A stretch of DNA of 64,000 nucleotides from assembly GCA_965279525.1 (NCBI GenBank), contig CBDIIB010000003.1:448001-512000 (forward strand), given 5' to 3'. The stretch is from Tagaea sp. GTDB lineage: Bacteria; Pseudomonadota; Alphaproteobacteria; CACIAM-22H2. The notes beneath the pieces were generated by a model, which had not been told where the DNA came from, made no database searches, and saw only the letters and a program-made list of their open reading frames with translations. The first letter of the stretch is position 1; every line of letters begins with the position of its first letter. The position numbers and the translations under genes were made by a program. Positions 32,875-47,057 of this stretch are shown in pieces.

Positions 32875-34583
<1,709 letters not shown>

Positions 34584-45193: not shown

Positions 45194-45964
45194 CTATTTC
45201 CCCTTGAAGATCGCGGGGCGTTTTTCGATGAAGGCCGCAACACCCTCCCGGAAATCCGCAGTCGCGACAAGCGTGGAGAATGCCTTGCGCTCGAACTGCA
45301 GGCCCTGCTCCAGCGGAACGTCGCGCGCGGCGAGCACCAGTTCCTTGGCAAGACGGATGGCGAGCACGGGCTTTTCGGCGATCTTCGCGGCGAGTGCGAC
45401 GGCGCGCGCGGCGACTTCCAAGTCCGGCACGGTTTCGGCGACAAGGCCGCACTGGCGTGCCTCGGCAGCCGAGATCATCTCGCCCGACAGGATCAGCTTC
45501 ATCGCGACCTGCTGGCCGGCGATGCGCGCCAGGCGCTGCGTGCCGCCGGCACCGGGCACCACGCCGAGATTGACCTCCGGCTGGCCGAACCTGGCACCTT
45601 CGCCCGCGACGACGATGTCGGCATGCATGGCAAGCTCGCACCCGCCACCCAGCGCATAGCCGCACACGGCGGCCACGACCGGCTTGGGGAAGCGGCGGAA
45701 GCGCTGCCAGTGGCCGACGCGCGCGTCGAGCAGGGCCGTGACGGCATCGCGCGTCGCGAGTTCCTTGATGTCGGCGCCCGCCGCGAAGACCTTGTCGCCG
45801 CCGGTGACGATCACGGCGCGGATCGCGTCGTCCGCAGCCGCGGCGTCGAGCGCGTCAGCGAGCAGGCCGAGCAGGGCGGTCGACAGCGCGTTGCGCGCCG
45901 CCGGGCGGTTGAGAGTCAGGCGCCGCACGCCGGGGGCGGGGTCGTCGGTAAGAAGGTCGGTCAT
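45194..45964 (-). CDS. enoyl-CoA hydratase (PaaF-like crotonase)
   Basis: LNRPAARNALS, FAAGADIKE, ALGGGCEL, FGQPEVNLG, PGAGGTQRL. Confidence 0.9.
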   Translation of the reverse strand: MTDLLTDDPAPGVRRLTLNRPAARNALSTALLGLLADALDAAAADDAIRAVIVTGGDKVFAAGADIKELATRDAVTALLDARVGHWQRFRRFPKPVVAAVCGYALGGGCELAMHADIVVAGEGARFGQPEVNLGVVPGAGGTQRLARIAGQQVAMKLILSGEMISAAEARQCGLVAETVPDLEVAARAVALAAKIAEKPVLAIRLAKELVLAARDVPLEQGLQFERKAFSTLVATADFREGVAAFIEKRPAIFKGK

Positions 45965-46004
45965 GGCGTTCAGCTTATCAGAATGGCGTTCAGCCTATCA
46001 GAAT
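45963..46004. repeat. 20-bp tandem duplication overlapping the hydratase start
   Basis: ATGGCGTTCAGCTTATCAGA / ATGGCGTTCAGCCTATCAGA, one mismatch. Confidence 0.85.
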
Positions 46005-46036
46005 CGAAACCCCCGCCGGGCGGGACCCGGCGGGGG
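46003..46036 (-). terminator. Rho-independent terminator of the small-ORF unit
   Basis: 11-bp GC stem CCCCCGCCGGG/CCCGGCGGGGG (46010-46036) followed by TTTCG on the minus strand. Confidence 0.7.
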
Positions 46037-46071
46037 TCGGATCGAATGCCGTTAAGGAGCCTTTCGGCCCG

Positions 46072-46191
46072 TCATCCCACGTCGGAGGCGATCGCTGAGG
46101 TCGTCGTCCGCGCATGGCCTGCCCCGGATTTCTCCAAAGCGGTCACGGCAAGCACCGGCACGAAGCCGGAATTGAACGATCCTGTGCGCAC
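46072..46191 (-). CDS. candidate 39-aa small peptide (MRTGSFNSGFVPVLAVTALEKSGAGHARTTTSAIASDVG)
   Basis: GTG directly preceded by GAAAGGAGGTGATCCA; own promoter and terminator candidates. Confidence 0.55.
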   Translation of the reverse strand: MRTGSFNSGFVPVLAVTALEKSGAGHARTTTSAIASDVG

Positions 46192-46336
46192 TGGATCACC
46201 TCCTTTCGTGGCGGCGACCGGCCCGCGATCCCGCGCGGACGTCGTATCGGTCGCCGGAAGGACGGATAGGGCCGCCCACCCATCCGGACCCTTCTCCCGA
46301 TGAACGGGCGAATCGGTCCGGACCATCGACCCCCGA

Positions 46337-46366
46337 ATCATGCGGGAGGCGGAGTCAGCCGGTCAA
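46337..46366 (-). promoter_or_regulatory. sigma70-type promoter candidate for the small-ORF unit
   Basis: TTGACC-N18-CATGAT on the minus strand, with two GANTC sites in or overlapping it. Confidence 0.5.
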
Positions 46367-46372
46367 GCAGGA

Positions 46373-47057
<685 letters not shown>

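Follow-up and report, generated by a model that had tools for sequence, protein, structure and literature searches.

The longest natural complementarities described to date between a Shine-Dalgarno (SD) sequence and the anti-SD of 16S rRNA are those of the rre genes and the Rfam CC2171 RNAs. According to the main text of Hahn et al. (RNA Biol 2016/17, PMC5711450), the rre class, represented by rreB and rreR, consists of small mRNAs whose function was called elusive. In that account, rreB RNA binds 30S subunits strongly, is translated weakly and undergoes start-codon-dependent decay, being stabilised when a stop codon replaces the start codon; its 17-nt SD and its GTG start each lower translation. 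A few 5' bases of the rreB site are single-stranded and the rest lies in a hairpin, class members are transcribed in the SD sense (Northern blot and RNA-seq), and the described genes are free-standing, with a context that is not conserved outside one family. The present analysis concerns an element in a stretch of 64,000 nt from Tagaea sp. (contig CBDIIB010000003.1, positions 448,001 to 512,000; the whole stretch is referred to as the window, and coordinates are those of the window). The element, at 46366-46003 on the minus strand, is probably a self-contained gene for an RNA of ~325 nt that represents a genus-specific variant of the alphaproteobacterial rre class.

The central feature is an extended SD of 17 nt, the '17c region' (46191-46207, minus strand; DNA GAAAGGAGGTGATCCAG, RNA GAAAGGAGGUGAUCCAG), which is complementary to the 16S 3' end without a mismatch. 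The genome that was searched comprises 4.35 Mb in 5 contigs with one assembled 16S gene (C5:1864411-1865901), whose 3' end reads ...GCGGCTGGATCACCTCCTTTC (longer stretch ...CTGGATCACCTCCTTTC); the element matches 17 of 17 nt of its own organism's tail, where 16-17 are expected for the class. The last G of the complement is at the same time the opening base of the start codon GTG (46191-46189) of a short open reading frame (ORF), so that positions 46207-46189 read GAAAGGAGGTGATCCAG followed by TG, and the SD core is GGAGG with a 7-nt spacing to GUG. At the base composition of the genome, 2.7e-4 occurrences of such a 17-mer are expected by chance per 4.35 Mb on both strands. The 14-mer AAAGGAGGTGATCC occurs only twice in the genome, in the element and antisense to the 16S gene, and the 10-mer AAGGAGGTGA four times, these two places among them. 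Given this expectation and the near-uniqueness of AAAGGAGGTGATCC, chance is ruled out as the cause of the match, and the exact 16S complement that a preliminary description had read from the letters of the window is thereby confirmed against the genome's own rRNA. A genome-wide scan returned neither a second 17c site nor a CC2171 match above threshold in this genome, and the element therefore stands as the sole rre-type gene of the genus.

Conservation follows the genus closely. The 408-nt intergenic stretch of this locus was matched in 20 of 20 same-genus genomes, near full length and at 81-98% identity in 14 of them and in two blocks (leader plus SD; terminator) in the other 6. Of 41 genomes searched, with the genome itself counted, 25 gave matches at E <= 0.01; the 4 that lie outside the genus amount to fragments of 21-42 nt. 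Exactly one copy of the element is present in each of 21/21 genus genomes. The genus alignment holds 20 sequences, the element itself and 19 others, G009 not being among them. Invariant in this alignment are CTTGACC, GTCGA, the SD, the GTG, GGATCGTTC and the box that precedes the terminator; within the SD, only A46192 is absent from the five sequences of a divergent group.

The ORF behind the SD (46072..46191, minus strand) consists of GTG and 38 further codons, followed by TGA (46074-46072). Its GTG start is invariant in 20/20 genus sequences, and its length is 39 codons in 18 of the 20, 40 in G016 and 30 in G020. Selection on the peptide was assessed by a codon test on the 14 alignable sequences of the closer groups; G016 was dropped for an indel and the five divergent sequences as unalignable. 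Variable sites are distributed 8/14/10 over codon positions 1/2/3, with position 2 varying most, and the pooled ratio of nonsynonymous to synonymous polymorphism (pN/pS) over 11 distinct ORFs is 0.91-0.95. A control ORF behind the 17c site in the sister genus g312 gave 6/5/16 by codon position and a pN/pS of 0.28. Between the peptides of the divergent group and the others, likeness is limited to ~7 N-terminal residues, and the 39-aa peptide belongs to no Pfam or NCBIfam family. Since frame +2 is likewise stop-free in 20/20 sequences, the open frame itself is no evidence for coding. By these comparisons, the amino-acid sequence of the ORF is not detectably under selection.

The most serious competitor of an RNA-level function would be an ordinary, efficiently translated small-protein gene, whose product is the 39-aa peptide and whose long SD is there only for high expression. 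The core and spacing of the SD are ideal for such a role, the start codon and the frame length are kept as stated, and in g312 the 17c site precedes an ORF of 61-65 aa under purifying selection. Nevertheless, this explanation is unlikely, as it is opposed by the near-neutral pN/pS with most variation at codon position 2, by divergent peptides that are alike only at their very start, by the lack of a Pfam or NCBIfam family and by the equally open frame +2. The idea of a very highly translated peptide, put forward in the preliminary description, also runs contrary to the experiments on rreB, in which, by the main text of PMC5711450, the 17-nt SD and the GTG lower translation.

Longer frames do occur behind the same site elsewhere. 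In g312, 17c plus GTG is present in 9/9 genomes, with a leader of ~120 nt and an ORF of 61-65 codons that has a signal-peptide-like N-terminus. Signal-peptide-like ORFs of 48-65 codons, with segments such as ...AFAEGGC(A/S)W..., were seen behind 17c in L176-L184 (g312), L040, L113, L056, L057 and L078, and the longer ORFs behind the 17c SD in other genera matched no Pfam family. Judged from these reading frames, the 17c site also serves real small secreted-protein genes.

Upstream of the SD, the element carries a promoter-like site and a long, GC-rich structured leader. A consensus scan placed the -35 box TTGACC at 46361..46366 and the -10 box CATGAT at 46337..46342 (minus strand, spacer N18), with CTTGACC invariant in 20/20 aligned genus sequences. 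The combination TTGACC-N18-CATGAT (46366-46337) is the sole promoter-like site within 45500-46900 (minus strand), where shuffled sequences lead one to expect 0.1. Transcription would start near G46330, the first base of the GTCGA that is invariant in the genus alignment, which leaves ~123 nt between start and SD, compared with only ~25-30 nt from promoter to SD in canonical members. Three stem-loops fill this interval on the minus strand. Stem-loop I (46283..46322) has the outer helix UCCGGACC/GGUCCGGA, in DNA letters TCCGGACC (46322-46315) with GGTCCGGA (46290-46283), and an inner hairpin CCCG/CGGG (46308-46305 / 46299-46296). Stem-loop II (46260..46277) is GGGCGG/CCGUCC, as indicated by separate leader folds and covariation. 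Stem-loop III (46213..46255) consists of the helix GGCGACCG/CGGUCGCC, in DNA letters GGCGACCG (46255-46248) with CGGTCGCC (46220-46213), around the hairpin GUCCGCG-CGGGAU-CGCGGGC. For the second stem, the preliminary description had proposed GGATGGG/CCTATCC; this pairing can form in the present genome, but the relatives support GGGCGG/CCGYCC (46277-46272 / 46265-46260).

The three-hairpin arrangement was recovered in 15 of 16 distinct leaders folded separately, the exception being G014, and hairpin II was found in a shifted register in G011 and G007. MAFFT alignments shift the registers of helices I and IIIa and were therefore replaced by separate folds and a model-based realignment; RNAalifold on the MAFFT alignments had given an unstable consensus that paired promoter DNA, or CGCCGCC with GGUGGGCG or the SD, and was rejected. 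Covariation was counted on the model-based alignment A6 (22 hits, 17 distinct rows), an earlier version, A5, having been dropped for 12 chance matches. In total, 88.7% of the leader cells pair, compared with 37-52% when partners are slid, and both sides change in 10 of 32 leader pairs. The covariation score of the leader is 0.259 versus <= 0.13 for slid partners, a value reached by 0/500 shuffles. Changes on both sides affect 5/8 and 3/4 pairs in helices 1 and 2, respectively, which make up stem-loop I; in hairpin II all cells pair and 4/5 pairs never vary, so that its covariation support is weak. Stem-loop III has a conserved loop, CGGGAU/A, and its pair 89/123 is seen as A-U, C-G, G-C and G-U.

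A covariance model of the leader (R1) gave one match per genome in 21/21 genus genomes. No match was found in 29 other family genomes, which represent the whole order in the collection, or in a sample of 150 class genomes of other families searched with stricter filters. Distribution and covariation together mark the leader as a real structured domain that goes with this gene only and, as far as searched, is limited to the genus. Homology to the ~120-nt leader of g312 was considered and rejected: a MAFFT alignment was unconvincing outside the SD and terminator, and R1 returned no match at E <= 1 in 6 g312 loci and none in 9 g312 genomes.

The SD itself is predicted to be masked within the same RNA. 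The minimum-energy fold of the element RNA has -181.6 kcal/mol (z -4.6), and in it CCACG-AAA-GGAGGUGAUC pairs with GAUCGCCUCC-GA-CGUGG at 46093-46077. This segment (46077..46093, minus strand), which lies inside the ORF and is predicted to pair with both GGAGGUGAUC and CCACG (46211-46207), is an internal mimic of the 16S tail, with only one base different between GAUCGCCUCC and the tail sequence GAUCACCUCC. When the 20 genus RNAs were folded separately, GGAGGUGAU was paired and the AAA unpaired in 20/20. In all 15 sequences of the closer groups, the partner in these folds is a segment of the GAUCGCCUCC type, 98-101 nt past the start. Among the divergent group, all five sequences pair GGAGG with a ...CUCC segment and GAUCC with a nearby GGAUC. 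Four of them with a 39-codon ORF (G015, G018, G002 and G001) have the partner AUUAUCUCC, in which all three differences from GAUCGCCUCC keep pairing; in the fifth, G020, pairing runs through a shorter CUCUCC segment. The duplex energies of the SD site are -34.1 kcal/mol with the 16S tail and -27.8 with the internal mimic, compared with -8.7 for GGAGG alone. The internal 16S-tail copy is thus predicted to mask the 17-nt site, and the arrangement known from the class, with 5' bases single-stranded and the remainder in a helix, is predicted in 20/20 folds. A further invariant motif, GGAUCG (46177..46182, minus strand), has two possible partners, GAUCC of the SD or CGAUCC at 46044-46039; neither candidate pairing shows variation, and covariation cannot choose between them.

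The 3' part of the element begins with the hairpin GGGCC-GAAA-GGCUC (46057..46070, minus strand; DNA GGGCCGAAAGGCTC), which lies directly 3' of the stop codon and whose position is kept as a hairpin in relatives with different letters. It is followed by a conserved box, ACGGCAUUCGAUCC (46039..46052), that is nearly invariant in 20/20 sequences and abuts the intrinsic terminator (46003..46038). The latter is a GC-rich hairpin (46038-46008) with core ACCCCCGCCGGG / CCCGGCGGGGGU and tail UUUCGAUUC. It contains two covarying pairs (C-G/U-A); a full T-tract, TATTTTTTT, follows the hairpin in the divergent group, and the U-tract is weak in this genome. Three Rfam candidates, ncS037, Rhodo-rpoB and int-alpA, matched the terminator only, at sub-threshold scores, and were rejected. 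In sum, all components that the preliminary description had listed for the minus strand, namely the promoter, leader stems, SD, 39-codon GTG ORF, GGGCC-GAAA-GGCTC hairpin and GC terminator, are present at the places given there.

With regard to class membership, 31 of 401 sampled class genomes contain a single GAAAGGAGGTGATCC(N)GTG pattern each, with no occurrence in a reversed control, and named genome contigs contain it in at least 118 stretches, almost all of them under the label Alphaproteobacteria; the rre/CC2171 RNAs are accordingly widespread in that class. Among the 80 loci typed by their ORFs out of these at least 118 stretches, 46 are MSHC-like (19-28 codons), 12 rreR-like (18 codons) and 5 rreB-like (14 codons); the remainder comprises two with 45-65 codons and a hydrophobic N-terminus, the present variant (L120) and 14 others. 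The combination of 17c and GTG was also seen under labels outside the class: L082, L088 and L110 (Burkholderiales or Bordetella) have similar MRD.QG... ORFs of 24-27 codons, and L115, L080 and L101 are labelled, one each, Streptomyces, Phycisphaerales and Bdellovibrionota; these occurrences may be genuine, mis-binned or fortuitous.

The relation of these loci to Rfam CC2171 (RF01867) was examined through its gathering score. MSHC-type loci exceeded the threshold in 9/20 of one set and 5/20 of another, the latter from Caulobacter, Caulobacteraceae, Brevundimonas and, twice, Methylobacterium. In this second set, the threshold was missed by 3 rreB-type, 4 rreR-type, 3 Acetobacteraceae and 4 long-ORF loci and by L120. 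On the strength of these sequence matches, Rfam CC2171 is the MSHC[HL]-type sequence family of the rre class. For the present element, a permissive scan aligned 46210-46117 to RF01867 with 15.7 bits (E 0.47) against a gathering score of 75; the best RF01867 match anywhere in the genome has 23 bits, and positive controls from Caulobacter, Brevundimonas and Methylobacterium reach 90-120 bits. By Rfam's criterion the element therefore lies outside RF01867. The preliminary description had named a match to an already characterised Rfam family as a reason to abandon its reading, and such a match was found by half: the 19-nt core equals the RF01867 5' consensus, but the score stays below the family's cut-off, the sub-threshold match being made up of these 19 nt and a hairpin. 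Scans of the window, and of the element under permissive settings, gave no match to Rfam riboswitch or thermometer families.

Out of 20 runs listed, four RNA libraries from four studies were compared with the window, and one contig per library, of 255-278 nt, lies wholly inside the element (46048-46316, 46068-46322, 46043-46320 and 46050-46310). The upper ends of these contigs fall 8-20 nt below the inferred start. The presence of the element in RNA libraries, leader included, is a weak hint of expression. No contig covering the flanking ABC or hydratase genes was found in the four libraries, and the uncovered part proves nothing.

The gene context bears on the independence of the element. The upstream neighbour is a Liv/Urt-type ABC ATPase gene in 13/20 loci and differs in 7/20; the downstream neighbour is an enoyl-CoA hydratase gene (45964-45194, same strand) in 19/20, including the 7 with another upstream gene (both names rest on NCBIfam matches below the curated cut-offs). 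The element is intact in all 20 loci despite changed neighbours, and it can thus be regarded as a unit of its own, being preserved where the upstream (7/20) or the downstream (1/20) gene differs. In 13 loci of other family genera, neither an ABC ATPase nor a hydratase gene was found within ~1.5 kb of the 17c elements.

The second alternative, also raised in the preliminary description, is a cis-acting leader, i.e., a leader-peptide or terminator attenuator that controls the hydratase gene. Its attraction lies in the arrangement: the hydratase ATG (45964) follows on the same strand only ~40 nt past the terminator, the gene is adjacent in 19/20 genus loci even where the upstream gene has changed, and the U-tract of this genome's terminator is weak. 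In addition, run X10 contains a 364-nt contig of a divergent relative that extends from the leader through SD and terminator and 58 nt beyond, into the hydratase start, and may reflect either read-through or DNA carry-over. However, on inspection 19/19 linked loci show, 6-7 nt ahead of the hydratase ATG, an extended -10 box (TGnTAnnnT), and the ATG lacks an SD in all 19. This suggests that the gene is transcribed from a promoter of its own into a leaderless mRNA, with that promoter abutting the small-RNA terminator (window 45972-46000; loci L008-L027). Because the hydratase appears to possess its own conserved promoter, an attenuator role is decidedly improbable. It is further opposed by the stop codon, which lies 33 nt before the terminator stem and beyond a ribosome's reach, by the intact element (95% identity) in G017, where other DNA lies downstream, by the free-standing nature of rre genes in the main text of PMC5711450 and by the other family genera, whose 17c elements have no hydratase nearby.

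Two peculiarities of this junction deserve mention. In G017 (L012), which lacks an adjacent hydratase, the terminator gives way to an AT-rich stretch (…AATAAATTGAAAATCAAATAAAATCG…), perhaps an insertion or a rearrangement. In the present genome, and in none of the other linked loci (19 in all), the hydratase -10 box and start context are duplicated by a 20-nt direct repeat in tandem, TTCTGATAGGCTGAACGCCA / TTCTGATAAGCTGAACGCCA at 46003-45984 / 45983-45964, with ATT in the first copy and ATG in the second.

The third alternative, likewise taken from the preliminary description, in which the plus strand would be transcribed into a small RNA (sRNA) whose 16S-tail copy CUGGAUCACCUCCUUUC titrates the SD sequences of other mRNAs, can draw on that 17-nt copy and on the strandless contigs, but it is most improbable, given that the sole promoter-like site, the conserved upstream -35 box and the hairpin with T-tract (TATTTTTTT in the divergent group) all point along the minus strand, as does homology to a class transcribed in the SD sense (Northern blot and RNA-seq, main text of PMC5711450).

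For the preferred reading, an rre-type gene acting through its RNA, the following course of events may be proposed. The RNA would start near G46330 at its own sigma-70-type promoter and fold into the three-hairpin leader, followed by the 17c region and GUG. In the finished RNA, GGAGGUGAUC would be masked by the near-copy of the 16S tail, GAUCGCCUCC, located ~100 nt downstream, with the start codon and the AAA of GAAAG left unpaired. These exposed bases could serve as a seed for a free 30S subunit, which might also bind co-transcriptionally, ahead of the mimic's synthesis; it would then displace the mimic, and up to 17 bp could form with 16S rRNA. If rreB is a guide, the resulting duplex would keep the RNA on the ribosome, with little translation of the ORF and with decay coupled to initiation. 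Selection would act on the RNA, that is, on the SD, start codon, mimic, leader and terminator, and the peptide is apparently not the selected product. Strong 30S docking and weak translation of the present RNA are likely by comparison with rreB, and displacement of the mimic by the 30S subunit is inferred from the predicted energies and the same analogy. Among the functions suggested in the preliminary description, a 30S-trapping or ribosome-sensing RNA comes closest to the rreB experiments (main text of PMC5711450), although strong 30S binding, weak translation and start-codon-dependent stability were shown for rreB only.

A more elaborate proposal, which is speculative and at present doubtful, is that this rre gene specifies a ~325-nt ribosome-docking riboregulator in which the peptide is irrelevant. 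The leader might serve as a sensor or protein-binding domain and so gate exposure of the SD; pairing with the 30S subunit might free GAUCGCCUCC, which could pair with the SDs of other mRNAs; and the RNA might in this way gauge how many free 30S subunits, or intact 16S 3' ends, are available and feed back on translation initiation.

Several points weigh against an RNA-level function and class membership as set out above. A pN/pS near 1 could also stem from RNA-structure constraints superimposed on a real coding frame, and the retention of 39 codons in 4/5 of the divergent group is a hint that it matters for translation to proceed up to a set point. As for the masking helix, it is predicted from folding energies and its SD side is invariant, so that its support comes from one-sided changes only, and the covariation of the leader was counted among close kin on an alignment fitted to the model itself. 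The element fails the CC2171 threshold (15.7 vs 75 bits), and its homology to described families amounts to ~19 nt plus architecture. Neither strand nor ends nor level can be read from the RNA-library contigs, to which DNA carry-over may contribute. Finally, the rreB RNA of Bradyrhizobium, from which 30S binding, weak translation and decay are transferred, is half the size (165 nt), with a 14-codon ORF and without a long leader.

Elsewhere in the window, a full-length match to RF02514 (5' ureB sRNA) is located at 33027-33316 on the minus strand (100.7 bits vs a gathering score of 40). No other Rfam family exceeded its threshold in the window.

Cis-regulators of the SD-sequestering kind, among them RNA thermometers and the expression platforms of riboswitches, combine a structured 5' leader with a following SD that is base-paired within the same RNA. 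The present RNA shares this layout, with a structured leader and then an SD predicted to be paired in cis. In contrast to such regulators, the masking strand here is a copy of the 16S tail located within the ORF, ~100 nt further downstream, and the leader occurs once per genome, only before this ORF.

The resemblance to CC2171 is more specific. The 5' consensus of RF01867 holds GAAAGGAGGUGAUCCAGUG, identical to 46207-46189 (19 nt), its members are small free-standing RNAs with a terminator, as is predicted for the present one, and CC2171 ORFs carry an internal CUGGAUC...CCUCC segment. Features of CC2171 that are absent here are the short UCAACAAC-type 5' part, the MSHC[HL]-type ORF of 19-28 codons and the GACAAUGGAAGGG box. 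Within CC2171 itself (loci L028-L137), the residues T-W-I are encoded by ACC-UGG-AUC (CCUGGAUC), which contains CUGGAUC, the complement of GAUCCAG of the SD; the codons for M-S-H-C-H overlap CAUUGUC, the complement of the downstream GACAAUG box. The peptide conservation of the CC2171 family may partly reflect RNA structure. The analysis joins two entities that have been described separately, Rfam CC2171 and the rre genes: no link between them was found in the main text of the rreB paper (PMC5711450), which does not contain the term 'CC2171', or in those biology papers on CC2171 that were searched, and both 'Shine-Dalgarno' and 'rreB' are absent from the text of a Methylorubrum preprint on CC2171. 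In a search covering mostly non-subscription literature, no follow-up on rreB in Bradyrhizobium beyond the original paper was found.

With rreR of the Rhodobacter/Roseobacter lineage, as presented in the main text of PMC5711450, the element shares a 16-17-nt SD ending in GTG, a short ORF and conservation within one lineage. The rreR ORF, on the other hand, has 18 codons (MSR..LE.GVGT type) without a long leader, and no similarity to the present element extends beyond the SD.

The closest counterpart is rreB of the Bradyrhizobiaceae (main text of PMC5711450). Both have a 17-nt 16S complement that ends on the G of GTG, a short ORF, their own promoter and terminator (here promoter-like and terminator-like sites), a single copy per genome, and a site whose 5' bases are predicted to be single-stranded and whose remainder is paired. 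They differ in size and layout: rreB has 165 nt, a short 5' part and a 14-codon ORF, whereas the present RNA is predicted to have ~325 nt, with a three-hairpin leader of ~125 nt and 39 codons. They also differ in the peptide, as RreB is reported to be conserved in its clade, whereas here the frame length is kept and pN/pS is ~0.9. Moreover, rreB adjoins a tRNA gene, whereas the present element lies between the ABC-transporter ATPase and hydratase genes, and the two show no sequence similarity beyond the ~19-nt core.

Viewed against these systems, the kind of gene is itself known, and what appears to be new here is the genus-specific structured leader, the doubled size, the apparently neutral peptide and the internal 16S-tail copy. 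The retention of SD, GTG, mimic, leader and terminator across the genus, together with a peptide that drifts as if neutral, points to a function at the level of the RNA or the ribosome, and the variant therefore bears on whether the peptide or the RNA is the product of rre/CC2171 genes. With canonical MSHC genes, secreted-protein genes under purifying selection and the present variant, a single family offers three flavours of the same 17-nt site and hence a natural comparison set.

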